Origin: an uncultured Candidatus Saccharibacteria bacterium
Lineage (GTDB): Bacteria; Patescibacteriota; Minisyncoccia; UBA6257; UBA9933
DNA length: 64,000 bases
Assembly: GCA_964453135.1 (NCBI GenBank)
Contig: CAYVOL010000003.1
Location: 33,976-97,975, forward strand
Reading direction: 5' to 3'
Shown: piece after piece, positions 3,092-63,168 of the stretch
How positions within the stretch are numbered: the first letter of the stretch is position 1
Layout of the letters: each line of letters starts with the position of its first letter
Made by a program: the position numbers and the translations under genes
The notes under the pieces: generated by a model
Seen by the model: the letters and a program-made list of their open reading frames with translations, nothing else
Databases searched by the model: none
What the model was told of the DNA's origin: nothing

Positions 3092-3151
3092 ATTGATCCG
3101 GAATTTTGAAACGTGGAACTTGAAATTTGAAATTTCAATATTGAAATCTTT

Positions 3152-6206: not shown

Positions 6207-7424
6207 ATGAGGTTTCACTATGTTGCCGCTCAAAACGACGGCAAGACAATTGAAGGAGAAACGACAGCCAGCGATGCGGCGGAAGTTTTGAGTTATCTGG
6301 TTTCCCGCGGGTTAAAACCCATTTCTTTAAAAAAGGAGAAATCTTTTGAAGTCAAAAACGATTGGCGCTATCTTTTTCGTTCCGCCATCACGATTGAAGA
6401 CAAGATTTTTCTCACCAAATATCTTGCATTGATGTTGAAAACCGGCAGCGACCTTTTCCGCGCCATTGATATTTTAATCGCCGATTTTGACAAGCCGTCA
6501 ATGCGTTCTTTTCTTTACGAGATTCGCGAGAATCTGGAGCGCGGCCAGGCTTTTTACCGGATTTTTGCCCGTTATCCGCGGTACTTTTCCACTGTCTTCG
6601 TTAATTTGGTAAAAGCGGGAGAGACTACTGGAACTTTGGATAAAACTTTTGAAGATTTAAGCAAAAGTCTTCAAAAAGAAGATAGCCTTCGCCGTGAAAT
6701 CAGTTCTTCTTTAATCTACCCGATAATTTTAGTGATGCTTTCTTTGGGAATTGTTTTTATTCTGGTCAGTTTTGTTTTGCCGAAAATTTCTGATTTGTTC
6801 AGCAGCGGCAATTTTAACCCTCCTCCTTTTTCCCGCATAGTGTTTGGCGTGGGCCGCTTTTTTAACGATTATCTTCTGGTATTTTTAACTTTTTTCTTTG
6901 TCTCGGGAGCGGGATTGTTTTTGGCTTGGCGCCAGTCGGCGGTGTTCAGGCAGATCGCCCACACTTTATTTTTTCGCGTTCCTTTGGTTGGTCCGGTTTT
7001 AAGAAGAATATCCCTGCAAAGATTCTGCTCCACGCTCGGGGCTTTATTGGCTTCGGGAATCCCTTTGGTTGATTGTTTGAATATAACGGCGCAAGTGGTG
7101 GGCGACGAAGAAATGAAGCAGGCGCTTTTAAGGATTTCCCAGGAAGGAGTCTTGAAAGGGGTGGTTTTGGGTGACGCTTTTAAAAGAGAGGCGGTTTTCC
7201 CCCGGGTGCTTGTCAATTTAATCGCCATTTCGGAGAAAGGAGGAAGTTTGTCCGCGATACTTATCACTTTATCCGATTTTTACGAAGGAGAAATAAAAAC
7301 TTCCCTTAAGACGATGCTTACTTTTTTGGAGCCGGCGCTTTTGGTTTTTATCGGCGCTATTGTCGCTTTGATCGCCGCGTCCATTTTGGTCCCCATTTAC
7401 CAGTTGTTCGGAAGTTTTAAGTGA
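6207..7424 (+). CDS. pilC: type IV pilus inner-membrane platform protein (PilC/GspF family)
   Basis: 405 aa with duplicated T2SSF-type domains and three TM segments. It sits immediately downstream of pilB. Confidence 0.9.
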   Translation: MRFHYVAAQNDGKTIEGETTASDAAEVLSYLVSRGLKPISLKKEKSFEVKNDWRYLFRSAITIEDKIFLTKYLALMLKTGSDLFRAIDILIADFDKPSMRSFLYEIRENLERGQAFYRIFARYPRYFSTVFVNLVKAGETTGTLDKTFEDLSKSLQKEDSLRREISSSLIYPIILVMLSLGIVFILVSFVLPKISDLFSSGNFNPPPFSRIVFGVGRFFNDYLLVFLTFFFVSGAGLFLAWRQSAVFRQIAHTLFFRVPLVGPVLRRISLQRFCSTLGALLASGIPLVDCLNITAQVVGDEEMKQALLRISQEGVLKGVVLGDAFKREAVFPRVLVNLIAISEKGGSLSAILITLSDFYEGEIKTSLKTMLTFLEPALLVFIGAIVALIAASILVPIYQLFGSFK

Positions 7425-7513
7425 AATCGTGTTAAGCGTCAAGTATTAAGTGTCAGGCGCGAATGTTTATGTTTCAAGAATTAAAACATCTTTGTGATAA
7501 ACGGATTTATTCC

Positions 7514-7972
7514 ATGCATAAAATTTTGCGCATGGGGTTCACTTTGGTGGAAATTCTTATTGTTTTGGGAGTGATCGCTGTTCTGGCTTCGTTTACCGGT
7601 TTGAATCTGGTGGGCATTTATCACCAGCGGAATTTAAACAATTATTCTTTGAAAATTGTTTATATTTTGCGGGCGGCGCGTGACAAGTCTATTAATCAGG
7701 AAAACGCCAGCGGGTGGGGCGTCCATTTTGATAATTCTTCCAGCAGCTTTGCTTTATTCCAGGGGAGCAGTTATAATTCAGGAATAGTTTATCAATATAT
7801 TAGGTTGAGTTCCGATGTTCAATTTGTCGCTCCGGCTTCCGGTCAAGATATTGTCTTCGCCAAAATTACCGGTTTGCCTAGCTCCACTTCTTCCGTTATA
7901 ATTTCTTTAGTTAATGATGCTAATACTTCCAGTACCATCACTATTAATTCCAACGGAGAAACAAGCAATTAA
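7514..7972 (+). CDS. type IV pilin/pseudopilin (prepilin-type N-terminal cleavage/methylation domain)
   Basis: Class III signal MHKILRMG|FTLVEILIVLGVIAVLA with Glu at +5. The ORF track opens at 7463 and 7514 is the first ATG giving a short leader. Confidence 0.7.
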   Translation: MHKILRMGFTLVEILIVLGVIAVLASFTGLNLVGIYHQRNLNNYSLKIVYILRAARDKSINQENASGWGVHFDNSSSSFALFQGSSYNSGIVYQYIRLSSDVQFVAPASGQDIVFAKITGLPSSTSSVIISLVNDANTSSTITINSNGETSN

Positions 7973-8049
7973 TCTAGTTCATAAAAGTTCGTAAAGTTTT
8001 TAAGATTAATAAAGTCAAAATTAATCAAGGTCGCTAATAATAAAGACAT

Positions 8050-8586
8050 ATGAAAATATTTAACAGCGGGTCGCGGGGTTTTACTCTCATAGAGCTTTTG
8101 GTGGTTATTTCTATTATCGGCATTTTGGCCGGCATATTTTTGAACAAAATAGGAGATTTCCGAAAGCAAGCGGAGGATGCCAGAAGGTTGGCTGACTTGC
8201 GGCATGTCCAGACATTACTGGAGCTTTTTTACAACAAGTGTAATCTTTATCCCGCTAACGGAGTTGACCCGGCGACCTGTACTTCGGCACCGCAGAATGC
8301 AACCCCTGGAGAACTTACATGGGATAATCTTAGAACAAATCTCGTTAACGCGGGAATAGGCATTGTGTCTAAAGATAATATACCGAAAGATCCCGATGCT
8401 AATAGGAGTTATCAATATATAAGCGATGGCTCCAATTATGTTTTGCGGGCTGATTTGAAAAAAGACAACCAGGTTCTGAAAGATAGCGCCAAAAACAATG
8501 GTATAAAAGATGCTTTTAAAAGCCTTATAAATTGTGATACAGCCGACAGTGCCAATGAGCATTACTCTTATTGTATAGAGTTTTGA
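8050..8586 (+). CDS. type IV pilin (candidate major pilin, PilA-like)
   Basis: Leader is MKIFNSGSRG|FTLIELLVVISIIGILAGIF. Two C-terminal Cys pairs (CNLYPANGVDPATC; CDTADSANEHYSYC) suggest disulfide-bonded loops. Confidence 0.75.
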   Translation: MKIFNSGSRGFTLIELLVVISIIGILAGIFLNKIGDFRKQAEDARRLADLRHVQTLLELFYNKCNLYPANGVDPATCTSAPQNATPGELTWDNLRTNLVNAGIGIVSKDNIPKDPDANRSYQYISDGSNYVLRADLKKDNQVLKDSAKNNGIKDAFKSLINCDTADSANEHYSYCIEF

Positions 8587-8587
8587 T

Positions 8588-9490
8588 ATGGCAGTTTATT
8601 TTTTTCTTTTTATTTCTGGTTTGGCGGCCGGCAGTTTTTTGAACGTTATTTCGCTGCGATACTGCGAGTTAAATTCGGAAAATAATCCAGAAGCCAGAAG
8701 CTATAACCTAAAAGCTATTATTGGCGGCCGGTCGCGATGCCCTCATTGTCAAAAAACTTTAAAGTGGTATGAACTCATACCGCTTTTTAGTTTTGTCGTT
8801 CAAAAAAGACGTTGTCGGAATTGCGGAGAAAAATTATCCTGGCAGTATCCGATTGTGGAGATTTTAGCCGGATTAATTTTTGTTTTTGTCCCGTTTTCTT
8901 TGAATCATCTTTTGGGTTTTTCGGGGAGTTCGGATGTATTCGTAGTCTTGTATTCTATTGTTTGGATTTTTATTTTTTTGCTTTTTCTTCTTCTTTCCGC
9001 CATTGATTTTCGGCTTTATATTATTCCCGATTCCGTAAATTTATCATTGGCAATCTTGGGCGCGTCTTTGATTGTTTTAAATTCTAAACCTTATATCCCG
9101 AATTCTAATTACTCACTTTCTTTCCTTGGCTATTACTCTTCGCTTTTTCCGCAAATCAATAATGTTTGGCTTAATCATTTGTCCGCCGCTTTTCTGGCAA
9201 TGTTTTTCTTTGGCGCCGTAATTTTAATAACCAAGGGGAGGGGAATGGGCTGGGGAGATTTTAAATTAGGGGGCGCCTTAGGAATTATTTTCGGCTGGCC
9301 GGATATTTTAGCGGTTTTGGCTTTGGCTTTTATTGTCGGCGCTCTGGCAGGAGTTTTCTTATTGACAAAAGGAAAGAAAAAAATGAAAGACGCGGTTCCT
9401 TTCGGTCCGTTTTTAGTAATAGGGGCGGCTTTGGTTTTCTTTTTCGGCTATAATATTTTGCAGATTTATTTTAGGATTTTTTTGCTATAA
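8588..9490 (+). CDS. pilD: prepilin peptidase (A24 family, PilD)
   Basis: N-terminal zinc-binding CPHC...CRNC tetracysteine followed by a polytopic membrane domain with the conserved GxGDFKLG-like region (GMGWGDFKLGGALG). Confidence 0.85.
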   Translation: MAVYFFLFISGLAAGSFLNVISLRYCELNSENNPEARSYNLKAIIGGRSRCPHCQKTLKWYELIPLFSFVVQKRRCRNCGEKLSWQYPIVEILAGLIFVFVPFSLNHLLGFSGSSDVFVVLYSIVWIFIFLLFLLLSAIDFRLYIIPDSVNLSLAILGASLIVLNSKPYIPNSNYSLSFLGYYSSLFPQINNVWLNHLSAAFLAMFFFGAVILITKGRGMGWGDFKLGGALGIIFGWPDILAVLALAFIVGALAGVFLLTKGKKKMKDAVPFGPFLVIGAALVFFFGYNILQIYFRIFLL

Positions 9491-9498
9491 TATTAAGA

Positions 9499-10083
9499 AT
9501 GATTTTCGGGCAACCTGATACAAGATACAAGCCGCGAAGGGCGCGGGGCTTTACCCTGATAGAGATGCTGGTTACTTTTTCCGTGATTGCCATTTTGTCC
9601 GGCGTGGTTATTCTTTACAACAACGCGGGGCGAGAACAATTAGAATTGTTTCAGGCGCAAAATCAGGTAGCAAGTGTTTTGAATCAAGCCAAGTCGTTTA
9701 CCCTGCAGTTTTATAATGGGGATTCCCGGCGGGACTGCGGCTATGGAGTCCATTTTGACGCCTCGGGAAATTCCTATTTTATTTTCAAAAGCAAAAAAAC
9801 TATTTCAACGGAAAATTGTATGGATTTGAGCCGGCCGGACGCTTACGACCAGACAAGAGACGATGATTTAAGCAAAAAATACAAATTTTCCCTGCCGTCC
9901 TCTTTGCAGTTTGACTCTGCGGGATTTATTTCCGATGTCGTTTTTATTTATCCCAGAGTTAATACCGTTATTATCCGGGGAGGAGTAGAAATAGACGAGG
10001 GGAAGATTACATTAATCAGCAAAGACGGGGCGTATAATAAAGTTGTGGGAATTAATAAAATTGGGCAAGTGTCGGCGCAGTAA
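9499..10083 (+). CDS. pseudopilin / minor pilin (prepilin-type)
   Basis: Leader is ...RRARG|FTLIEMLVTFSVIAILSGV. Confidence 0.7.
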   Translation: MIFGQPDTRYKPRRARGFTLIEMLVTFSVIAILSGVVILYNNAGREQLELFQAQNQVASVLNQAKSFTLQFYNGDSRRDCGYGVHFDASGNSYFIFKSKKTISTENCMDLSRPDAYDQTRDDDLSKKYKFSLPSSLQFDSAGFISDVVFIYPRVNTVIIRGGVEIDEGKITLISKDGAYNKVVGINKIGQVSAQ

Positions 10084-10132
10084 ACCGGCGCAATGTGAGA
10101 CGTTAAACATAAAACATAAAAAACATTGTAAA

Positions 10133-10639
10133 ATGCTACGCGCTACATATTATAAGTTTACGAGCAATAGGGGACAGCTAATTGTGGAAGCGGTGATTGC
10201 TATTTTTTTCATTACCACCGCGGTTTTGATATTTGTGGGGCTTTTGGCGCGTTCCTCTGGGGTTAATACGGTGATTGCCGACCAATACACCGCCACTTAT
10301 CTGGCGAGCGAAGGCATTGAAGTGGTGAAAAATATTATTGACGAAAATGTTAAACAGGGGAGAGCGTGGAATGACGGGATAAACAACGGGGATTACGCCG
10401 CGCAATATAACAGCGCGAAATTAGACAACACTTATAATTACAATAATTTTATAGATTTTGACGGCAACGCTCATTTTTTCCAATACGACAACGGAACCCC
10501 TACGCCTTACCGGCGGAAAATCACCATCGTAAACATCTCGGCGGATCATATAGATGTTATTTCCGCTGTTAATTGGAATTCGCACGGCCTAAGCCAGAGA
10601 GTGAATTTGGAGGACCATTTTTATAATTGGAGGCAATAA
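10133..10639 (+). CDS. pilin-like protein (atypical Gln at +1 of the prepilin site)
   Basis: The sequence ...TSNRG|QLIVEAVIAIFFITTAVLIFVGLL has Glu at +5 and a hydrophobic helix. The ORF opens at 10043 but overlaps the previous gene, so the internal ATG at 10133 was chosen. Confidence 0.5.
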   Translation: MLRATYYKFTSNRGQLIVEAVIAIFFITTAVLIFVGLLARSSGVNTVIADQYTATYLASEGIEVVKNIIDENVKQGRAWNDGINNGDYAAQYNSAKLDNTYNYNNFIDFDGNAHFFQYDNGTPTPYRRKITIVNISADHIDVISAVNWNSHGLSQRVNLEDHFYNWRQ

Positions 10640-10689
10640 ATAAGCTTTAAGCTTTTAGCTCCTAGCTTTCAGTATCTAATTTAACTTCG

Positions 10690-11250
10690 ATGAAAAAAAA
10701 TCTACAACCCAAAGCTCAAAGCTCAAAGCTCAAAGCTAGTCCGAGAGGTTTTTCCATAGTGGAACTTATAATGGCCACGGCTTTGTTTGTTATTATTCTT
10801 TCTATTATAGTCAGCATTTATTTGCGTTCTTTAGAGACGCAAAAAGCCACCCTCCATCTGATAGGAGCCAATGACAATCTGGTTTTAGCAGTGGAAGAAA
10901 TAGCGCGCGACATAAGGAACGGCACGGATTTTAACGAAGGCGACCCGAATTGTTCCAATAACGGCTTTGGCTCGGGATTGGAGTTTACTATTTATACGGG
11001 AGAAAAATTCTGTTATCGTTTTAACGGCTCCGACGCAATTGAAAAAGGAGTTTTTAATACATCAACCGGCAACTTCGATTTTCTAAAAATTACTTCCGAC
11101 GATATTCAAATCAGCGATTTCAAGATACAGAAGATTTCAGGGTTTTCCGTGCCGCGGGTCGTTGTTTTTTTCGCCGTGTCGTCCAAGAACGGCGTTTTGC
11201 GGGGAGTAAAGACTTACATTCAAACCACAGTCAGCGCGAGAAACATCTAA
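10690..11250 (+). CDS. pseudopilin / minor pilin (prepilin-type)
   Basis: Leader is MKKNLQPKAQSSKLKASPRG|FSIVELIMATALFVIILSII. The leader is encoded in part by a 7-nt tandem array (caaagct x4). Confidence 0.7.
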   Translation: MKKNLQPKAQSSKLKASPRGFSIVELIMATALFVIILSIIVSIYLRSLETQKATLHLIGANDNLVLAVEEIARDIRNGTDFNEGDPNCSNNGFGSGLEFTIYTGEKFCYRFNGSDAIEKGVFNTSTGNFDFLKITSDDIQISDFKIQKISGFSVPRVVVFFAVSSKNGVLRGVKTYIQTTVSARNI

Positions 11251-11332
11251 TCTTTTAACTTGTAGCATGAAACGTGAAACGCAAAAAAATCTCTTACAAG
11301 GTTACACGCGTTATTTACATGCCATGTGCTAT

Positions 11333-11776
11333 ATGACTAATTATTTACTGCAAAACCTAATAAAACGTTATACGTTATATGTTATACGTTATACGGACAA
11401 GAGGGGGCAGTTGATGATTTTAACGGTTTTGCTTTTGGGCGGGGTTATTATCGGCGTTACTTCCGTGGTAAGTTCATTGATTGTGTATAAAGTCCGTCAG
11501 GCAACCGACGTGGCTGATTCGGCCAAGGCCATTTTCTCCGCGGACGCTGGCCGGGAATTTGAGCTTTATCGCGCCAAAACGGGGTTAGGCGTGCCTTGCC
11601 CTTCTTTCTCCAACGGAGCGAGTTTTCATACCGAGGTAACATACGATGATTCTTCCGGCTTGCTCACTCTTTTTTCCAAAGGAAGCGGAATTAACAACAA
11701 CCGCATTTGGCACGAATTTTTCGCCTCTTCCACTATCGCCACTTCCAGCTATCCCATTAATAAAGATTGCCAATAA
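11333..11776 (+). CDS. hypothetical membrane protein, possibly a GspK/PilX-like minor pilin lacking Glu5
   Basis: The sequence ...DKRG|QLMILTVLLLGGVIIGVTSVV has a Gly before a hydrophobic helix but no Glu5. The start is ambiguous: the ORF opens at 11267, with ATGs at 11324, 11333 and 11414. A 7-nt x4 array (acgttat) lies in the putative leader region. Confidence 0.35.
   Translation: MTNYLLQNLIKRYTLYVIRYTDKRGQLMILTVLLLGGVIIGVTSVVSSLIVYKVRQATDVADSAKAIFSADAGREFELYRAKTGLGVPCPSFSNGASFHTEVTYDDSSGLLTLFSKGSGINNNRIWHEFFASSTIATSSYPINKDCQ
11365..11396 (+). repeat. heptanucleotide tandem repeat (acgttat x4) in the 5' region of a pilin-like ORF
   Basis: Direct reading of acgttat acgttat atgttat acgttat. 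Confidence 0.8.
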
Positions 11777-11931: not shown

Positions 11932-13023
11932 ATGTTCAAATCTCCTCTTTTCTATATTAATTTAGTTCTTTTAGTAATGATTGTCAGTTTGGCATTGAGC
12001 GTTAATGTCAGCAATTCCCATCTTCCCAATTTTCTCAAAAAAGCCATTGCCCAGGTGCAGTCAATAACCGGCAGCGGCACCACCAACTATCTGGCTGTTT
12101 TCGGACAAACTTCCCCTTCCTATACCATCGGCAATTCCATTATTTATGACAATGGAACTAATGTGGGCATTGGGACGACTAATCCGCTTGTGGGATTGGA
12201 TATTGCCGGAGGACGAGGCATTCAACTATCAGACGGATCGGGCCATTATGTTTCTGCTGGTTTGAGCACTGTTACTCCCGGTTGGGCAGGTTTACATGTT
12301 GGCACCATTGCCGGACCTAATGTAGGCGGAACAGGAGGATTTTTTGCTTATGATTACAATACCAATACAGCAGTGATAGCAAGTACTTATGCTACCCGTA
12401 TTGCTTCTCGCCAAGGATTCATACAGTTCAATGCTTCTGATAACCCGTCCCAGGATCTTGGTCGGATGTGGATTATGGGAAACGGCAACGTCGGTATCAA
12501 TACCACCAGCCCTTCCCAGAGATTAGAAGTTGTTGGCAATGGCAAATTCGGAAGATTCTATGTTGTTGATACTCAATATGGCGGCGGTCCTTATGCTCCC
12601 GGCATCGGGACAGATGGAACCAACACCGGCGTTGCCGCAAATGGTGGAGGATTTTACGTCCTCAGTGGTCCTTCTGGCGCTTATGGCAATACTTATGGAA
12701 ATGATTATTGGATTAACTCTGTCGGCAAATGGGCGAGTCAGATGGGGGGAGGATTTGGCTCTTGGAGCGGCCCGTATAGTACGAACACCGCATATACTGC
12801 GGCGACTGACGGATTTGTTGTCGGATATACTTACGCAGGGGGCGATGTTTATTGCGGAGGTTATATTGACACTCCGTTGGGGGTTCGTCGTCAAGATGGC
12901 AGATCAAATCATGATGGCGCACAAGGGACCTATATGGTTCCGGTGCGAAAGGGAGATACCTGGCAGGTAACAGACACCGGTGGTTGCGGATGGACTATTT
13001 ATTGGTTGCCTGCTGGCAGTTGA
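11932..13023 (+). CDS. glycine-rich secreted protein with tail-fibre-like NVGIGTTNP / GINTTSPSQ-LEV repeats (cassette copy A)
   Basis: Signal-peptide-like N-terminus (MFKSPLFYINLVLLVMIVSLALS). Gly/Asn/Thr-rich repeats are of the kind seen in phage tail-fibre and beta-helix adhesin proteins. The first ~85 aa are nearly identical to the minus-strand paralog at 20128-21141. Confidence 0.6.
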   Translation: MFKSPLFYINLVLLVMIVSLALSVNVSNSHLPNFLKKAIAQVQSITGSGTTNYLAVFGQTSPSYTIGNSIIYDNGTNVGIGTTNPLVGLDIAGGRGIQLSDGSGHYVSAGLSTVTPGWAGLHVGTIAGPNVGGTGGFFAYDYNTNTAVIASTYATRIASRQGFIQFNASDNPSQDLGRMWIMGNGNVGINTTSPSQRLEVVGNGKFGRFYVVDTQYGGGPYAPGIGTDGTNTGVAANGGGFYVLSGPSGAYGNTYGNDYWINSVGKWASQMGGGFGSWSGPYSTNTAYTAATDGFVVGYTYAGGDVYCGGYIDTPLGVRRQDGRSNHDGAQGTYMVPVRKGDTWQVTDTGGCGWTIYWLPAGS

Positions 13024-15487: not shown

Positions 15488-18079
15488 TTGTTTTTGTTAT
15501 TTAATATATTCAAGTGTTATTCAATGATTTACAACCATCAGAAAATTGAAAAGAAGTGGCAAGCGTTTTGGGAGAAGAGCGGAATTTATAGAATTAAGAA
15601 AAACAGAAATAAAAAGAAATTTTATGTTCTGGATATGTTTCCTTATCCGTCCGGCGATGGGCTCCATGTGGGGCATCCCCGCGGCTACATTGCCACTGAT
15701 GTGGCGGCGCGTTTTAAAACAATGAAGGGGTATGAGGTTTTACATCCTATGGGCTGGGACGCTTTCGGGCTTCCGGCCGAAAATTTCGCCTTAAAAAACA
15801 AAATTCATCCGCGATTGGCTGTTGCTAAAAATATCAAAAGGTTTAAAAATCAGCTTAAAATGTTCGGTTTTACTTATGACTGGAGCCGCGAGATAAACAC
15901 CACGGATGAAAAATATTATAAATGGACGCAATGGATTTTTCTTCAAATGTTTCACGCCGGTTTGGCTTACGAATCTTTTGAGCCGATTAATTGGTGTCCT
16001 TCGTGCAAGACCGGTTTGGCCAATGAAGACTTGGAAGACGGACGCTGTGAGCGTTGCGGCAGTATTGTGGAAAAAAAGCCGTTAAGGCAATGGGTTTTGA
16101 AAATGACCGCTTACGCCGAACGCCTGCTTAAAGATTTGAAATTTCTTGATTGGCCACTTTCTATTGTTGAGCAGCAGAAAAACTGGATAGGAAAATCGGA
16201 GGGAGCGCTCGTAGAATTCAAGATTCAAGATTCAAGATTCAAGATTGATGTATTTACCACGCGGGTTGATACGATTTTCGGATGCACTTATGTGGTGGTG
16301 GCGCCGGAACACGAGGTTATTAAGAATTTAACATTTAGAATTAAGAATTTCGGGGAAGTAGAGAGATATATTGGGGAAGCGAAGAAAAAATCTGATTTGC
16401 AGAGAACTGATTTGGCCAAAGAAAAAACCGGAGTTGAATTGAAGGGCGTGGAAGCGATTAATCCGTTTAACGGCGAAGCGGTGCCTGTTTTTGTCGCGGA
16501 TTACGTTTTGGCGGATTATGGAACCGGCGCGGTAATGGCAGTACCGGCGCATGACAAACGTGATTACGATTTTGCTCTAAAATACGGTTTATCAATTAAA
16601 CGGGTAATTGTTTCAAATAATACACAAGTTCAGAATGATAATTCCAAATCACAAAATTTAAAACAAGCTTTTGAAGATGACGGGATTTTGGTTGATTCGG
16701 GAGATTTCACCGGTTTGATTTCGGCTAGGGCGCGGCAAGAAATGGCAAAGTGGCTGAAAAAAAATAAATTGGGGGAAGAAAAGACAAATTATAAAATGCG
16801 CGATTGGGTTTTCAGCCGCCAAAGATATTGGGGAGAGCCTATTCCGCTAATTTTTTGTCCAGCGTGCAAAGAATCAATCCAAGATCCAAGATCCAAGATC
16901 CAAGATTCAAGATTCAGTCAGGGCGAATTGTTAAACCCCGGCTGGATAGGGGTGGAAGAAAAAAATTTACCCGTAAAACTGCCGGAGGTGAAATCTTATG
17001 AGCCATCCGGCACGGGCGAATCTCCTTTGGTAAATATTAAAAAATGGGTGAATGTGAAATGTCCTAAATGTGGCGGAAAAGCCAAACGGGAAACCAATAC
17101 TATGCCGCAGTGGGCCGGTTCCTGCTGGTATTATTTGCGTTTCATTGATCCGAGAAATAATAAGGCATTGGTTGATAAAAAAAAGGAAAAAGAATGGATG
17201 CCGGTTGATTTATACGTGGGCGGGGTGGAACACGCCACCCGCCATTTGCTCTATGCCCGTTTTTGGCACAAATTTTTATACGATATCGGAGCGGTTTCCG
17301 CCAAAGAACCTTTCAAAAAGCTCGTCAATCAAGGGTTGATTTTGGCGGCTGACGGCCGCAAGATGTCCAAACGATGGGGAAATGTGATAAATCCGGACGA
17401 TATGATTGAGCAATTCGGCGCGGACTCTTTGCGTTTGTACGAAATGTTTTTAGGTCCTTTTGCGCAGCATATTGCCTGGAATATGGACGGGATAAGGGGA
17501 ATGAAAAGATTTTTGGACAGAATTTATAAAACAATATCAAAACCTAAAAGTCAAAGCCCGAAACTCAAAGTTAAAAATCAAAAATTAGAGAGATTACTGC
17601 ATCAAACTATTAAAAAAGTGACGGAAGATATCGAAGGTTTTAGGTTTAACACGGCGATTTCTTCTTTAATGATTTTATTTAACGAAATGGAACGAGAAAA
17701 CAGCGGATTAGAAATAAAACATTGCGAGTTATTTCTAAAATTACTGGCGCCGTTTGCTCCGCATATCGCAGAGGAAATATGGCAAAATTTGCGACGCAAT
17801 AATAGCGGTAAAAACGCGCGCCGCACCGTTTTCCAAAGCATTCATTCAGAGTTATGGCCCGGATATAACAAGAAATTGATTGAAGAAGAATTATTTGAAC
17901 TGGTGGTGCAAATTAATGGTAAAGTAAAAGACAAAGTTAAAGCCCATGCCGGTATTTCCCAAAAAGAAGCGGAGGAAATGGTTTTTGCTTTGCCTAAAAT
18001 CAGAGAGCTGTTAAAAGGAAAATCCGCGCGGAAAATTATTTTTGTTCCCGGAAGGTTGATCAATCTCGTTATCGCGTAA
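15488..18079 (+). CDS. leuS: leucyl-tRNA synthetase
   Basis: HIGH motif (HVGHPRGY) and KMSKS motif (KMSKRWGN), with a CP1 editing region. 863 aa. It contains two in-frame 7-nt tandem arrays. Confidence 0.95.
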   Translation: MFLLFNIFKCYSMIYNHQKIEKKWQAFWEKSGIYRIKKNRNKKKFYVLDMFPYPSGDGLHVGHPRGYIATDVAARFKTMKGYEVLHPMGWDAFGLPAENFALKNKIHPRLAVAKNIKRFKNQLKMFGFTYDWSREINTTDEKYYKWTQWIFLQMFHAGLAYESFEPINWCPSCKTGLANEDLEDGRCERCGSIVEKKPLRQWVLKMTAYAERLLKDLKFLDWPLSIVEQQKNWIGKSEGALVEFKIQDSRFKIDVFTTRVDTIFGCTYVVVAPEHEVIKNLTFRIKNFGEVERYIGEAKKKSDLQRTDLAKEKTGVELKGVEAINPFNGEAVPVFVADYVLADYGTGAVMAVPAHDKRDYDFALKYGLSIKRVIVSNNTQVQNDNSKSQNLKQAFEDDGILVDSGDFTGLISARARQEMAKWLKKNKLGEEKTNYKMRDWVFSRQRYWGEPIPLIFCPACKESIQDPRSKIQDSRFSQGELLNPGWIGVEEKNLPVKLPEVKSYEPSGTGESPLVNIKKWVNVKCPKCGGKAKRETNTMPQWAGSCWYYLRFIDPRNNKALVDKKKEKEWMPVDLYVGGVEHATRHLLYARFWHKFLYDIGAVSAKEPFKKLVNQGLILAADGRKMSKRWGNVINPDDMIEQFGADSLRLYEMFLGPFAQHIAWNMDGIRGMKRFLDRIYKTISKPKSQSPKLKVKNQKLERLLHQTIKKVTEDIEGFRFNTAISSLMILFNEMERENSGLEIKHCELFLKLLAPFAPHIAEEIWQNLRRNNSGKNARRTVFQSIHSELWPGYNKKLIEEELFELVVQINGKVKDKVKAHAGISQKEAEEMVFALPKIRELLKGKSARKIIFVPGRLINLVIA
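16217..16246 (+). repeat. heptanucleotide tandem array (caagatt x4) inside leuS
   Basis: The sequence gaa ttcaagattcaagattcaagattcaagatt gat encodes FKIQDSRFKID. Confidence 0.85.
16879..16915 (+). repeat. heptanucleotide tandem array (ccaagat x4 + tcaagat) inside leuS
   Basis: The sequence ccaagatccaagatccaagatccaagattcaagattcag encodes IQDPRSKIQDSRF. Confidence 0.85.
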
Positions 18080-21141: not shown

Positions 21142-21251
21142 AGGAGAAAATCTTAAAAACATAAAACTTGAACCTTGGAACTTGGAACTCGTCTCAATTA
21201 TTTATCCCCAGTTTCAAGATTTATATTTTATGTTCTGTGATTATTACTCTA

Positions 21252-22364: not shown

Positions 22365-22576
22365 GAAATCCGAGCGTTGTTTACATTTCGGAATATTGAC
22401 CACTGGCGTTCCCGACCTTACTGTCATTCTGAGTCCGCCAGCTGGCGGACGAAGAATCTTACGGAGATCCTTCGCCCCGCCACAGCAGGGCTCAGGATGA
22501 CAAAAACGGTCAGGATGACCAAAATGTTCAGGATGACAATAAAAAACTACGACGAAAAGCGTAAATAACGCTATGA
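22365..22576 (+). repeat. dispersed ~200-nt structured element, copy 1 (candidate ncRNA / MITE-like)
   Basis: Shares gaaatccgagcgttgtttacatt...tgtcattctgagtccgccagctggcgg...gatccttcg...cccgcc...ggctcaggatgacaa...gtaaataacgct with 26668-26878 and 56461-56655. Confidence 0.6.
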
Positions 22577-23552: not shown

Positions 23553-23554
23553 GA

Positions 23555-23640
23555 AACTTGAATCTTGAAACTTGAAAATTGAATCGCGCAACTTGAATCT
23601 TGGAACTTAGATCTTGAATCCTGATACTTGGCACTTAATA
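23555..23640 (+). repeat. 7-nt-period tandem array (NNCTTGA units) between convergent genes
   Basis: Units read aacttga atcttga aacttga aaattga ... aacttga atcttgg aacttag atcttga atcctga tacttgg. Confidence 0.8.
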
Positions 23641-26667: not shown

Positions 26668-26878
26668 GAAATCCGAGCGTTGTTTACATTTTGGAATGTT
26701 GACTATTGGGGTGTGCCCGACGGCCCCACTCCTGCCATTCTGATCCGCCAGCCGGCGGAGAAGAATCTTAAGAGATCCTTCGTCCGCCCCGCCATGGCGG
26801 GGCGGGACTCAGGATGACAATAAAAACGTTTAGGATGACAATTAAAAAACAGCGATGAAAAGTGTAAATAATGCTATG
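26668..26878 (+). repeat. dispersed ~200-nt structured element, copy 2
   Basis: See copy 1. It has the same termini and internal palindromes (ccgccagccggcgg; ccccgccatggcgggg). Confidence 0.6.
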
Positions 26879-35422: not shown

Positions 35423-36223
35423 ATGGGCCAAAAATTAGGACAGCATTTTTTGATAAATAAAGAGAAACTGCAAAAAATTGTTGGCGCTTTGGAATTAGAG
35501 CAGGGGGATTTGGTTTTTGAAATCGGTCCCGGGCATGGGGAGTTGACAGAAGCCATCAAGTATCAAGTGTCAGGTGTCAATATTATTGCGATTGAAAAAG
35601 ACCGGGAATTGGCAGCGGCTCTAAAAGGAAAATATAAAGATGATTTACGGGTAGAAATTGTTGAAGGAGACGCATTGAAAATTTTGTCGGAATTACTCCA
35701 AAGGCATAATCTAAAAGATAAAAGCTATAAAATTGTTGGCAACATTCCTTACTATATTACCGGACATTTATTGCGGATTTTGGGCGAGTTAAAGAACAAG
35801 CCAGCGAGAATTGTTTTGACCATTCAAAAAGAAGTGGCGGAAAGAATATGCGCGGCGCCTCCGAGAATGAATTTATTGGCGGCCAGCGTTCAGTTTTGGG
35901 CTGAGGCGGAAATAATAGATTACATTAGCCGTAAAGATTTTTTACCGGCGCCCGAAGTTGACAGCGCTATTATTGTTTTGCGCCCGCGGCGCGCGGCTTT
36001 CACGCAAATTGGCGACGAACATTATTATCGGTTCATAAAAATTTTATTCCAGCATCCGAGAAAAACTTTATTGAATAATCTCAAATCTCAAATCTCAAAT
36101 CTCAAAAATAAGGAAGAAATTATTAAGGAATTAAAAAAAATTGGAATAAATCCGCAGGATCGGCCGCAGGATTTAGGTCTGGATAATATTATTGAGCTGG
36201 CAAAGAGTTTTGGTTATAATTAG
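35423..36223 (+). CDS. rsmA: 16S rRNA (adenine1518/1519-N6)-dimethyltransferase
   Basis: The GQHFL start, the SAM-binding EIGPGHGELT and the NIPY motif are present. It contains an in-frame aatctca x4 heptamer array (36083-36110). Confidence 0.9.
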   Translation: MGQKLGQHFLINKEKLQKIVGALELEQGDLVFEIGPGHGELTEAIKYQVSGVNIIAIEKDRELAAALKGKYKDDLRVEIVEGDALKILSELLQRHNLKDKSYKIVGNIPYYITGHLLRILGELKNKPARIVLTIQKEVAERICAAPPRMNLLAASVQFWAEAEIIDYISRKDFLPAPEVDSAIIVLRPRRAAFTQIGDEHYYRFIKILFQHPRKTLLNNLKSQISNLKNKEEIIKELKKIGINPQDRPQDLGLDNIIELAKSFGYN

Positions 36224-51806: not shown

Positions 51807-51856
51807 TCTCCGCTCTTGTTCTTGACTCTTGACACTTGACGCTCGACACTTATTCT

Positions 51857-52726
51857 ATGCCCGAGTTGCCGGAAGTTCAAACAATTATTGATGATTTGAA
51901 TAAGAAAATTAAAGGCGAAATTATCGCTGATTTTTGGAGCGACTGGAAAAAATCCCTTAAAGCGATTTCTCCGGAGCAATTTAGGCGCGCTGTAAAGAAT
52001 AAAAAAATTTTAAGAGCGCGCCGCAAGGGAAAAAATATTTTTATTGACTTGAGCGGCGGGAAAACTATTTATCTTCACCTTAAAATGACCGGCCATCTTT
52101 TAGTTAAGCCGGCCGGTAAAATTTCGGATTTGGAAAAAAAATATTTTGCCGAAAAAGTTAATCAGTATATTCACCATATTTTTTATTTTAGAAGCGGGAA
52201 AATCATGACCTTTTCCGATTTAAGAAAATTCGGGAAAATTATTTTAGTGCCTACTTCACAGGCGGAGGATTTGCCGGAAATAAAAAATTTGGGGGAAGAC
52301 GTTTTATCTCCAAGTTTTACATTGGAGAAGTTTAAAAATCTTTTGGCGAAAAAAAGAAAACTTTCTCTGGTTGTTTTTTTAGCGGACCAGCAAATTTTAA
52401 GCGGCATCGGCAACATATACCGCAGCGAAATTTTATTTGAAGCCGGCGTTTTGCCATGGAGGAAAGCCGGCGAACTGGAAGAAGAAGAAATTGGAGATGT
52501 TTATCGTGCCATTGGAAAAATTTTGAAAAAAGCGATAAGATTGCGGGGCACCTCCGACAGCGATTATCGGGACACCTCCGGCACTCCCGGAAAATTCCAA
52601 AATGTTTTGAGGGTTTACCGCAGAGAAGGCGAGAAATGTTTGGTATGTAAGAAGGAAATTAGGAGGGTAAAAATCGGAGCGAGAAGCGTCTTTTATTGCC
52701 CGCGATGCCAGAATCGTGAATCCTGA
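51857..52726 (+). CDS. mutM: formamidopyrimidine-DNA glycosylase
   Basis: It starts MPELPEV, giving the catalytic Pro2 after Met removal. It has the H2TH region and a C-terminal zinc finger CLVCKKEI...CPRCQ. The start was moved from 51836 to the Fpg-type ATG. Confidence 0.85.
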   Translation: MPELPEVQTIIDDLNKKIKGEIIADFWSDWKKSLKAISPEQFRRAVKNKKILRARRKGKNIFIDLSGGKTIYLHLKMTGHLLVKPAGKISDLEKKYFAEKVNQYIHHIFYFRSGKIMTFSDLRKFGKIILVPTSQAEDLPEIKNLGEDVLSPSFTLEKFKNLLAKKRKLSLVVFLADQQILSGIGNIYRSEILFEAGVLPWRKAGELEEEEIGDVYRAIGKILKKAIRLRGTSDSDYRDTSGTPGKFQNVLRVYRREGEKCLVCKKEIRRVKIGARSVFYCPRCQNRES

Positions 52727-52772
52727 ATCGTAAATCTTGAATCGTGAATCGTGAATTCTAACCATTCAATCA

Positions 52773-56460: not shown

Positions 56461-56655
56461 TGCCGCAGACATAGCGAAGCGAAGAATCCATCCTGTCATT
56501 CTGAATCCGCCAGCTGGCGGAGAAGAATCTCGTATTTATGCGATTGCGAATATGAGAGATCCTTCGTCCCCCGCCATGGCGGGGGACGAAGGATGACAAT
56601 TAAAACAGGATGACCATAAAAAACAACTATAAAAAGTGTAAATAATGCCTGGATT
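56461..56655 (+). repeat. dispersed ~200-nt structured element, copy 3
   Basis: It shares tgtcattctgaatccgccagctggcgg...gatccttcgtcccccgccatggcggggg...aggatgacaa...gtgtaaataatgc with copies 1 and 2. Confidence 0.6.
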
Positions 56656-61151: not shown

Positions 61152-62159
61152 ATGTTTATTCGTAAAATCGGCATTGATTTGGGAACAGCCAATACTGTTG
61201 TTTTTCTTCCGGATAAAGGTTTTGTGATAAACGAGCCGACCATCGTGGCTTTGAGCGCGCCCGACAATTCCGTGATGGCGGTAGGAAAAGAAGCAAAGGA
61301 AATGATCGGACGCACCCCCAGCGACATTAAAGCTTATCAGCCGTTAAGAGACGGAGTGATTGCGGATTATTATATCACTAAGGCCATGCTGGGGTATTTT
61401 ATTAAAAAAACATTGGGCATGTTTAATTTTTTTAAGCCCGATGTGGTGATTTCCGTGCCAGCCGGCATTACGCAGACCGAGCGCCGGGCTGTTGTTAACG
61501 CCGCCAAAGAAGCTGGCGCTAAAGCCGCGCATATCGTGCGGGAGCCGATTTTAGCCGCTCTGGGAGCCGGCATTCCCATTAACGCCCATTCGGGCAATAT
61601 GATTATCAACATCGGCGGCGGGACTTGCGAAGCCGCGGTAATTTCTTTGGGAGGAATTGTTTCTTGGTCCAGTCTGCGGGTGGCGGGCAATAAATTTGAT
61701 CAAGCCATCGCCGATTATATAAAGAAAAAATATTCTTTGGCTATCGGCCAGCAAACCGCGGAAAATATTAAAATTAAAATCGGCGCCGCTTTGCCGTCCA
61801 AAGAGAAAAGAACCATGGAAGTGAGAGGACGCGATTTGATTTCCGGTTTGCCCAAAGATATCGCTATTAGCTCCAATGAAATAGCCGAAGCCCTTCACGC
61901 GCATTTGCTGGATATTGCCGCGGCTATCCAGAATGTTTTTAACGAAACGCCGCCGGAACTGGTGGCGGACGTTATGGAAAAAGGAATAATACTTTCCGGC
62001 GGAGGAGCGCAAATCGCCCACCTTCCGGAATTTTTCAAAAGAATGCTGGGCGTGAATGTCTATGTGGCGGAAGAGCCGCTGTTTTGCGTGGCGAAAGGGA
62101 CAGGTTTAATTCTTAATCACTTAAATCTTTACAAGAGGACTTTGTTGAATAAACGTTAA
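61152..62159 (+). CDS. second MreB-family actin homolog (Mbl/MreB paralog)
   Basis: The motifs GIDLGTANT and INIGGGTCE are present. It aligns over its full length with the MreB at 54715. Confidence 0.85.
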   Translation: MFIRKIGIDLGTANTVVFLPDKGFVINEPTIVALSAPDNSVMAVGKEAKEMIGRTPSDIKAYQPLRDGVIADYYITKAMLGYFIKKTLGMFNFFKPDVVISVPAGITQTERRAVVNAAKEAGAKAAHIVREPILAALGAGIPINAHSGNMIINIGGGTCEAAVISLGGIVSWSSLRVAGNKFDQAIADYIKKKYSLAIGQQTAENIKIKIGAALPSKEKRTMEVRGRDLISGLPKDIAISSNEIAEALHAHLLDIAAAIQNVFNETPPELVADVMEKGIILSGGGAQIAHLPEFFKRMLGVNVYVAEEPLFCVAKGTGLILNHLNLYKRTLLNKR

Positions 62160-62175: not shown

Positions 62176-63168
62176 ATGAACCAATATCAAAGATCTTACA
62201 TTGAATTTCTCCGGAAATTTCTAAAACCGGCGAAGCCGCTAAAAGTAGTTTTTGATTGTTCCAACGGCTCGGCGGGAATCGTATTGAAGCATTTATTATT
62301 CAATAGCCGGCGGACAAAAAAACTGAAAGTTTTTTTGATAAACGAAAATCCCGACGGAAATTTTCCGGGACACGGCCCTAATCCGTGGGCTGATAACGCG
62401 ACTGACCAATTAAAAAAAGAGGTTTTGCGGCAAAAGGCGGATTTGGGAATTATTTTTGACGCGGATGCTGACCGCGTTTTTTTTGCGGATAATCGCGGCT
62501 GCTTGCTTGATCCGGACGAAGCGGCTTATATGCTCATATGGCATTTAAAGCCCAAGAGGGCGGTGGCAGATATCAGGACAGGATGGCTGATAAGCAAATT
62601 GGCAATTTCTGATTTTCCCTTATCAATATCAAAATCAAAAGCAGGGCATTATTTTATAAAAAAAATAATGCGGCAAAAGGACGCTGATTTGGGCGTGGAA
62701 AAATCCGGCCATTATTATTTTAGAATTCCAAATTTGCGCGGAGGGACGCTTTATTACGATGACGGAATCTTGGCGGCTTTGGAAATGATTAACGCGGTGT
62801 CGCGTCTGCCTTATTCGCTCGCGGATTTCAGCGATTTGCTTCCGAAATATTATAGAAGCGGGGAAATCAACATCAGAATTCAGAATTCAAAATTCAAAAG
62901 CCAAAATCACAATTCAAAATCAAAAATACTAAAAAAGGTAGAGGATAGATATAAAAATACGGCGGCAAAGATTTCTCATTTAGACGGGCTATCAATGGAA
63001 TTTGAAAGTAATCTTTACGGTCAAGGGCTTGGGAGTGCCGGCGGCAATAGCTGGTGGTTTAATTTGAGGTTTTCCAACACCGAACCGTTTGTCCGCCTTA
63101 ATATGGAAGCCGAGAATGATGAGACGCTTGAAAAGGAGAAGAAAAAATTGTTATTGTTAATGAAATAA
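62176..63168 (+). CDS. alpha-D-phosphohexomutase-family protein lacking the N-terminal catalytic-Ser domain
   Basis: Domain II-IV blocks are present (VVFDCSNGSAG; GIIFDADADRVFF; EKSGHYYF) but there is no TASHNP-type domain I. It contains an in-frame 7-nt-period array (62867-62925). Confidence 0.5.
   Translation: MNQYQRSYIEFLRKFLKPAKPLKVVFDCSNGSAGIVLKHLLFNSRRTKKLKVFLINENPDGNFPGHGPNPWADNATDQLKKEVLRQKADLGIIFDADADRVFFADNRGCLLDPDEAAYMLIWHLKPKRAVADIRTGWLISKLAISDFPLSISKSKAGHYFIKKIMRQKDADLGVEKSGHYYFRIPNLRGGTLYYDDGILAALEMINAVSRLPYSLADFSDLLPKYYRSGEINIRIQNSKFKSQNHNSKSKILKKVEDRYKNTAAKISHLDGLSMEFESNLYGQGLGSAGGNSWWFNLRFSNTEPFVRLNMEAENDETLEKEKKKLLLLMK

Follow-up and report, generated by a model that had tools for sequence, protein, structure and literature searches.

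Heptanucleotides form the most abundant class of long simple sequence repeats (SSRs) in many prokaryotes, and an origin by polymerase slippage has been proposed for them, together with a polymerase-footprint idea for the 7-nt step (Mrazek 2007, as relayed in PMC4692102 and PMC4679880). Here we analyse tandem heptamer arrays in a 64,000-nt stretch of contig CAYVOL010000003.1 (assembly GCA_964453135.1) from an uncultured Candidatus Saccharibacteria bacterium, hereafter the window, and in loci from other members of the candidate phyla radiation (CPR; Patescibacteria). In the window the arrays lie between genes and also inside open reading frames (ORFs), including those for leucyl-tRNA synthetase (leuS) and the 16S rRNA dimethyltransferase (rsmA/ksgA). 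With a probability of roughly 70%, we consider them to be heptanucleotide microsatellites that reflect a mutational habit of the CPR lineage, not a mobile or imported element. Coordinates are those of the window; leuS, rsmA and the arrays inside genes are on the + strand, and intergenic arrays are given without a strand.

As represented in the two later papers, the long heptanucleotide SSRs of Mrazek, Guo & Shah (2007) resemble the arrays described here in their over-representation at 7 nt, in the slippage proposed to generate them and in their scattered distribution among taxa. They differ in that coding repeats were mainly multiples of 3, whereas about 79% of the heptamer arrays in our CPR loci lie inside ORFs (under a crude ORF model), and in that the CPR arrays occupy recurrent hot spots in housekeeping genes. 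In a 2025 survey, only tri- and hexanucleotide repeats were enriched in coding sequence. Cyanobacterial short tandemly repeated repetitive (STRR) sequences and the GGGAATC / GGGGA(C/T)T repeats of Xanthomonas and Nostoc are likewise genome-wide heptamer families that vary between close relatives, with differences in both length and sequence, but they are G-rich and intergenic, use one or a few units per genome and may form G-quadruplexes (PMC4692102); the CPR units, by contrast, are A-rich, derived from local sequence and often coding, and are diverse rather than few and mostly intergenic. The TAACTGA repeats of Beggiatoaceae are also heptamers in 2–6 copies, for which the limits that stop codons set on orientation within genes were noted, but they consist of a single unit, lie mostly just upstream of start codons and have been proposed to regulate translation (PMC4679880), whereas the window arrays share no single unit and hold no consistent position relative to start codons.

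In neuO of the Escherichia coli K1 phage CUS-3, as in our coding arrays, heptamers lie in frame (there at the 5′ end of the gene) and the product is full-length only at multiples of 3 units; neuO, however, is an accessory surface-modifying gene with 3–53 units and measurable switching (PMC13001214), against 4–5 units in the window, where one host is essential. The leuS unit AAGATTC is one base from the neuO unit AAGACTC and the encoded heptads are alike (KIQDSRF and RLKTQDS, the latter being our own translation of AAGACTC), a likeness that is probably due to convergence on stop-free, hydrophilic heptamers. Low-complexity regions made by slippage similarly arise where short repeats proliferate to give variable protein segments, but their units are mostly 1–5 bp or runs of an amino acid (PMC10120016), not 7-nt units that yield 7-residue-periodic peptides through three frames. 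Heptamer repeats are therefore known in bacteria, whilst their recurrent coding hot spots in CPR appear to be new: a full-text literature search returned no description of heptamer repeats, or of coding hot-spot behaviour, in CPR genomes.

Tandem arrays were located with Tandem Repeats Finder, supplemented by exact-run scans and a tolerant period scan. The exact scan of the window revealed four arrays with at least 3 copies at period 7 and none at periods 5, 6 or 8–15. The tolerant scan gave nine period-7 arrays, none in shuffled sequence and 0–1 at every other period; at a looser threshold period 7 rose to 15 arrays, against 0–3 at other periods. Both Tandem Repeats Finder and the exact runs confirm head-to-tail copies of a 7-nt unit, and the excess over chance is specific to this unit length in the window as well as in 418 kb of CPR loci. 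The arrays lie where a first-pass annotation of the window had placed them, to within about 2–6 nt, and the peptides that it read from three of them (FKIQDSRFKID, IQDPRSKIQDSRF and NLKSQISNLKN) are verified as in-frame by translation. Its frame arithmetic is also borne out, since simulated gain or loss of one or two units truncates every host ORF whilst a change of three units stays in frame. The observation is real, and is stronger and more general than the annotation had supposed; an assembly artefact is ruled out, as numerous independent assemblies show the phenomenon and protein sequences show it too.

The 418 kb of CPR loci contain 57 period-7 arrays against 0–5 at each other period between 4 and 12. 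Expressed per 100 kb, period-7 arrays number 8.9 in CPR loci, 0.40 in non-CPR loci and 14 in the window. Several of the arrays in CPR loci lie within the leuS genes of other lineages, with four in a single Saccharibacteria LeuS. The same periodicity is evident in protein sequences: 120 CPR LeuS homologs contain 32 period-7 peptide runs (0–8 at other periods) and 120 CPR RsmA homologs contain 55 (0–10 at other periods), whereas 105 non-CPR LeuS proteins contain none (0–3 at other periods). These runs cluster at a few hot spots, in the same places as the window arrays. The nearest named relatives of the window's LeuS and RsmA, at 55–69% identity, come from metagenome-assembled genomes labelled Parcubacteria-group, Wolfebacteria, Moranbacteria or 'Patescibacteria group'.

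The leuS gene (15524–18079), whose 851-residue product is on record from the NCBI contig, matches Pfam tRNA-synt_1, the editing domain and Anticodon_1, and has three heptamer arrays inside it. The first (16216–16246) consists of 4.4 copies of ATTCAAG, which may also be phased as TTCAAGA, with 100% matches and 23/23 period-7 identities. It encodes FKIQDSRFKI within a 15-residue hairpin immediately N-terminal to the TTRxDT motif of the editing domain. This segment (EFKIQDSRFKIDVFTTR) aligns without gaps to its counterpart in Thermus thermophilus LeuS (1h3n; LFPVEGKEVRIPVFTTR), and the distance from SEG to VFTTR is 15 residues in nearly all of 123 LeuS loci. The DNA encoding the hairpin scores 15–21/21 at period 7 in about a dozen of the 123 and at most 12/21 elsewhere; the high-scoring loci belong to scattered CPR lineages and a few otherwise labelled or unlabelled sources. 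Relatives encode this 15-residue hairpin with degenerate heptamers, such as TTTAGAA-TTAAGAA-CTCGGAA-TTCAAGA. A second, degenerate array at 16319–16349 (ATTAAGA x4.4, 75% matches, 18/24 identities), which the first-pass annotation lacked, encodes IKNLTFRIKNF, at a hot spot where LeuS homologs have IKNYELRIKNY or KNQESRIKNQE.

What that annotation listed as the second leuS site is an array of four ATCCAAG units followed by ATTCAAG (16877–16913; 5.3 copies, 96% matches, 29/30 identities), which encodes SIQDPRSKIQDSRF. It makes up the variable half of a 25-residue, clade-specific insertion after the first CxxC of the zinc module; the other half, F-x-x-GELLNPGW, is conserved. At the third site, an A-rich and lysine-rich linker (17541–17590), an array of period 7 had also been proposed, but the signal is unspecific, with 25/43 at period 7 and 24 at period 6. 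The linker is 9 residues shorter than its Thermus counterpart, and in relative L081 the equivalent linker does carry a true array, (GGTGTCA)x4. Also in L081, where a PilM-like gene adjoins leuS, an 8-nt array (ACAAACTT, about 5 copies) lies in the gene at 12168–12212 (the LeuS of P0001). The window LeuS itself falls in a 90% protein cluster whose representative is a 51-residue Logan fragment, which is why our LeuS homolog search contains no self-hit.

The rsmA gene (35423–36223; Pfam RrnaAD, with KsgA structures among its PDB matches) contains two arrays. The clearer one (36077–36106) comprises 4.3 copies of AATCTCA with 100% matches and encodes NLKSQISNLKN. It opens in phase at the Asn-Leu codons of the conserved RKTLLNNL motif, and its peptide (NNLKSQISNLKN) aligns without gaps to Bacillus subtilis KsgA (6ifs). 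The RsmA peptides of other lineages start at the same conserved Asn-Leu (NNL-KSQISNLKN, NNL-EFRIKNLEFR and NNL-KPKTKNLKP), and the unit depends on which leucine codon is present locally, with (AATCTCA)n at AAT-CTC and (AATTTAG)n at AAT-TTA. The linker from NNL to RPQ in RsmA homologs peaks at 23 residues (27 proteins) and 30 residues (16 proteins), with further length classes of 24/31/38 and 26/33/40 residues; these lengths would fit steps of 7 residues, or three units, but the sequences are phylogenetically related and the pattern is only suggestive. The other array (35551–35582; ATCAAGT/GTCAGGT, 16/19 identities), again absent from the first-pass annotation, is degenerate and encodes IKYQVSGVN at a hot spot spanning residues 42–62, where homologs have ELRIKNKELRI or SNLKSQISNLK. 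At the NNL site some homologs (P0123, P0153, P0163 and others) have TMTMTMTM peptide repeats, which, judged from the proteins, probably derive from a 6-nt DNA repeat. The occurrence of other repeat periods (8 nt and 6 nt) at the same hot spots indicates that these are general slippage-tolerant sites. Public gene calls disagree over the rsmA start, giving 257 or 266 residues.

A third type of host is the phosphohexomutase-like ORF at 62176–63168, which contains a degenerate TTCAGAA/TTCAAAA array of about 8 units with indels (62864–62925; 37/52 identities), reported by Tandem Repeats Finder as 7.9 copies of TCAAAAT at 62873–62925 (81% matches, with indels). Compared with solved phosphoglucomutase/phosphomannomutase (PGM/PMM) structures, the array adds about 10 residues. 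The ORF encodes domains II–IV only, domain I with the catalytic serine being absent. A split or frameshifted gene was considered and rejected, as the ORF upstream is MreB (61152–62159, ending 17 nt before it) and domain I is simply missing; from its domain content, the ORF would be either a truncated remnant or one part of a split enzyme, with its first domain supplied by another gene. The exact protein was not found in the public protein collection.

Pfam assigns the host genes as LeuS, RsmA/KsgA and a phosphohexomutase-like protein. The description of these hosts as essential, made in the first-pass annotation, needs to be narrowed: it does not extend to the phosphohexomutase-like ORF, which has no domain I, nor to rsmA/ksgA, which is dispensable in model bacteria. 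The accompanying description of the arrays as tolerated insertions in surface loops is correct insofar as they occupy permissive, variable protein segments and there is extra sequence at LeuS site 2 and in the phosphohexomutase-like ORF; it does not describe LeuS site 1 or the rsmA array, which are gapless against orthologs, or LeuS site 3, which is shorter than in Thermus.

Six of the 15 arrays from the looser scan lie in non-coding DNA, which makes up 6.5% of the window, or seven of 15 if a weak AAACATA array (10093–10125), between the pilin gene at 9499–10083 and the called start of the next gene at 10133, is counted as intergenic. Intergenic DNA is thus enriched about 6-fold in arrays, yet 8–9 of the 15 are coding. 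The longest array, GAAWCTT in about 11–12 copies (23553–23630), lies between convergent genes, and three of its units are the exact reverse complement (GAATCTT) of the leuS unit AAGATTC. The others include GAAATTT/TTGAAAC x6.7 (3101–3147, intergenic), GAAACTT/GGAACTT in about 5 copies (21156–21192, at a gene edge or intergenic), GAATCGT in about 7 copies (52708–52762, running over the stop codon of fpg and the spacer ahead of a penicillin-binding protein gene) and TCTTGAC/CTTGACA in about 5 copies (51816–51851). The last directly precedes the true start of fpg (MPELPEV, at 51857), a position that confirms it as intergenic.

Coding and intergenic arrays differ in the stop codons that they carry. 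Every coding array in the window is stop-free on the sense strand, whilst the + strand of each of the six intergenic or gene-edge arrays includes a stop trinucleotide. The units of these six arrays are also of a TTGAA/TTGAC type that resembles −35 boxes, and those of the coding arrays run in the complementary, TCAA-type orientation; the window has positive GC skew throughout. This contrast in orientation could arise from strand-asymmetric mutation on the leading strand combined with purging from genes, or from chance at small numbers. Consensus scans for promoters or terminators in the intergenic arrays were unconvincing, and hairpin or palindrome potential, judged by eye, showed no general pattern across the units. 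Three intergenic regions (22492–22546, 26811–26848 and 56590–56623, all +) contain tandem pairs of a 17-nt motif, AGGATGACAAT-AAAAAC, with 5 matches against 0.16 expected by chance; it is unrelated to the heptamers and may be an operator or promoter-associated element.

The in-phase start of arrays at conserved host codons, together with the use of different units in each lineage, supports an origin in situ. In the mechanism that we propose, a local 7-nt seed would be copied in tandem by slipped-strand or template-switch synthesis; candidate seeds are AAT-CTC-A of the RsmA RKTLLNNL motif and, in LeuS, the Phe codon of the hairpin in the editing domain. Coding arrays survive only where net length keeps the frame and where the tract, as read, has no in-frame stop, and most units are stop-free in all three sense-strand frames. 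Survival further needs a Lys/Asn/Gln/Ser/Ile-rich, 7-residue-periodic peptide to lie in a permissive segment, such as a hairpin, a linker, the variable part of a lineage-specific insertion or a signal-peptide leader. As judged from the ortholog alignments, arrays mostly overwrite an existing segment at conserved length rather than add to it, and the same few hot spots have been rewritten repeatedly in different CPR lineages with different units. The leuS and rsmA arrays are probably tolerated mutational by-products that give local protein hypervariability, and nothing in the analysis shows that the arrays regulate anything.

Turnover of these sites is best seen in one related species-level population, where the whole array at the window's rsmA site has been replaced although the first ~450 nt of rsmA are 100% identical. 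Three alleles are present: (AATCTCA)x4 in L168 and L176, (AATTTAG)x5 in L174 and (GAATTAT)x5 in L175. Of the 90 positions in the cassette, 38 distinguish L176 from L174, against 1 of 749 positions elsewhere. L175 equals L168 up to alignment column 575 and is about 95% identical thereafter. The same strains, near-identical and from a related CPR species, also carry a second, non-heptamer kind of in-frame variable element: a 30-nt, GC-rich, palindrome-like indel (CGAACCCGCCGTCGCCAAGGCTATGGCGGGCAAGG, encoding RTRRRQGYGGQG; rsmA alignment columns 454–487) is present in L168 and L175 and absent in L176 and L174. In the closest LeuS pairs (79–88% identity), 25-column windows of low identity fall at the hot spots and at one C-terminal position near column 975. 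The hot spots therefore turn over fast and draw on a limited repertoire, and this turnover could proceed by slippage with homogenisation, by convergence from anchor codons or by short-tract recombination.

Two apparent variants elsewhere were set aside. The sole indel between the strain pair L081/L082 is 19 nt of non-repeat DNA, and a 7-residue difference between L167 and L168–170 in the gene beside rsmA is an artefact of start calling, without indels. For a second strain of the window organism, look-ups with exact proteins gave only Logan contigs 100% identical to the window and a metagenome scan gave nothing closer than 63–69%; the candidate P0121 proved to be the same genome with a different start call. 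Clusters of the window's proteins contain no variants of ±7 residues.

Several observations weigh against a slippage-driven mutational habit as the whole explanation. No indel was found at any array between strain pairs 99.85–99.98% identical, a comparison in which the look-up method left just 4 arrays free to vary. Differences between the rsmA alleles extend past the repeat into some 35 nt of neighbouring sequence, and every type of allele is also present in lineages that are otherwise only about 52–64% identical, so that exchange by short-tract recombination fits these alleles at least as well as slippage in situ. Over 35 nt the rsmA array is identical in lineages only about 52–58% identical elsewhere (L171 matches the window exactly, and L168 carries the same array with one change), which needs either convergence from anchor codons or selection at the nucleotide level. 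Moreover, if perfect 4.4-copy arrays in an essential gene were built up or homogenised one unit at a time, the gene would pass through lethal frameshifts, and a multi-unit burst or length-neutral conversion must be assumed instead. Finally, TCAA occurs in 20 of 45 sense-strand units, against 2.9 expected; this bias may stem from constraints on composition or on the peptide that the units have in common, or from a preference in slippage, and sequence specificity of some factor would also be compatible with it.

A bolder form of the mutational explanation, which we put forward only tentatively, is that replication or repair in CPR involves an activity with a built-in step of 7 nt, which continually rewrites permissive segments, even in essential housekeeping proteins, from local seed codons without net change in length. 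If true, the differences between close strains would lie at fixed hot spots and involve entire heptamer cassettes, and distant lineages would repeatedly reach identical arrays, as in the 35 identical nucleotides of rsmA. This would amount to a distinct, lineage-wide mode of protein evolution, in which the cassettes might also be exchanged or selected.

Less probable, and in our view unlikely, is that the arrays are selected hypervariable cassettes, in which useful variation is kept and exchanged by short-tract recombination, or in which the sequence is constrained as a DNA or RNA element, with slippage secondary. In its favour, three rsmA alleles occur in a population otherwise 99–100% identical, their differences run past the repeat as noted above, and L175 looks recombinant. 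The allele types are common to the diverged lineages with a cassette identity of 53–80%, and the lineages with the identical KSQISNLKN array are not monophyletic in a tree that left out the linker, which requires at least 4 changes of state. Between the window and L171, 12 of 12 synonymous positions in the array are identical, against 53% in the rest of the gene. However, the hosts are cytoplasmic housekeeping enzymes with no obvious gain from diversity, and the hot spots are the structurally least constrained segments. The period-7 excess is equally strong in intergenic DNA, which argues for a mutational cause, and convergence from conserved anchor codons can itself yield identical arrays.

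For the pilin-like ORFs, the first-pass annotation had regarded phase variation as plausible, and we treat it separately. A type IV pilus-like cluster (6207–11776) encodes a PilC-like protein, at least three N_methyl pilins (7463, 8050 and 9499), a prepilin peptidase (8588–9490) and three further pilin-like ORFs. ORF 10690–11250 contains four perfect copies of CAAAGCT (10710–10737; 100% matches) at codons 7–16, in its 5′ coding region, and these encode part of the predicted cleaved leader (MKKNLQPKAQSSKLKASPRG|FSIVE...). An alternative public gene call starts after the array (163 rather than 186 residues), but the ORF encodes the canonical signature of a prepilin, in which a basic leader is followed by G|F-S-I-V-E, and this supports the longer, array-containing start as the probable one. 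A further array, TAAGCTT x2.9 (10641–10660), lies in the spacer 30–50 nt upstream and shares an AAGCT core with the leader array. In ORF 11267–11776, ACGTTAT x4.4 (11365–11395; 91% matches) falls in the N-terminal region, or in the 5′ untranslated region if translation starts at M50. Public gene calls for this ORF give 169 and 120 residues, the shorter starting after the array, and it has no Glu at +5; the array may be non-coding, with the true start downstream. A Shine-Dalgarno-like motif was rejected as a general argument for moving the start to an internal ATG, as such 4-mers occur at −20 to −4 in only 4 of 57 modelled window genes, and the genome seems largely independent of Shine-Dalgarno sequences.

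The arrays at 10710–10737 and 11365–11395 would then be contingency loci in which slippage by one unit switches pilin variants on and off, as in neuO. Consistent with such a switch, a repeat falls within the 5′ coding sequence of a gene for a surface structure, a class of dispensable gene to which contingency loci belong and leuS does not, and a second array sits in the upstream spacer. Changes of one or two units would leave 11–27 residues of ORF 10690 or 46–76 residues of ORF 11267, whilst three units would keep the ORF; in neuO the in-frame (AAGACTC)n is likewise ON only if n is divisible by 3 (PMC13001214). Nonetheless, the pilin tracts have only 4 units, against 3–53 and commonly about 20 in neuO, where even at 21 units a one-unit difference was present in only about 7% of cells (PMC13001214). 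Equivalent arrays occur in leuS, where the OFF state would be lethal, and a leader peptide is just another permissive segment. A Logan contig across all three pilin-region arrays is unbroken and identical to the window, the protein clusters show no length variants beyond start-call differences, and no out-of-frame allele was seen in the available assemblies (protein clusters, and Logan contigs that are all 100% identical to the window). The array of ORF 11267 is also possibly upstream of the true start. We consider phase variation improbable at both sites.

Colonisation of ORFs by pre-formed intergenic repeats, the origin favoured in the first-pass annotation, or by a small mobile element carrying them could draw on a unit shared between leuS (AAGATTC) and the intergenic array at 23553–23630 (its reverse complement GAATCTT), on the almost identical units of leuS arrays 1 and 2 and on the TCAA/TTGA core common to many arrays, but it is very improbable and already largely refuted, as arrays start in phase in conserved host codons that set the unit (AAT-CTC giving AATCTCA, AAT-TTA giving AATTTAG), relatives carry other units at orthologous sites, three of five well-mapped coding sites are not insertions and neither flanking duplications nor element ends were seen.

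Coding sequence, above all that of essential genes, would normally be expected to lose repeats whose unit is not a multiple of three. The CPR ORFs break this rule, in that such repeats are common, recur at the same structural positions and replace elements of conserved length. Mutational bias, not selection, may therefore shape visible parts of CPR proteins and the differences between strains in otherwise identical genes. The hot spots mislead LeuS and RsmA marker alignments and phylogenies, create apparent 'insertions' and affect the calling of gene starts, whilst the array sites could serve as strain markers. The arrays also open a route to explaining why bacterial slippage favours 7-nt units, in a group whose replication machinery is unstudied.

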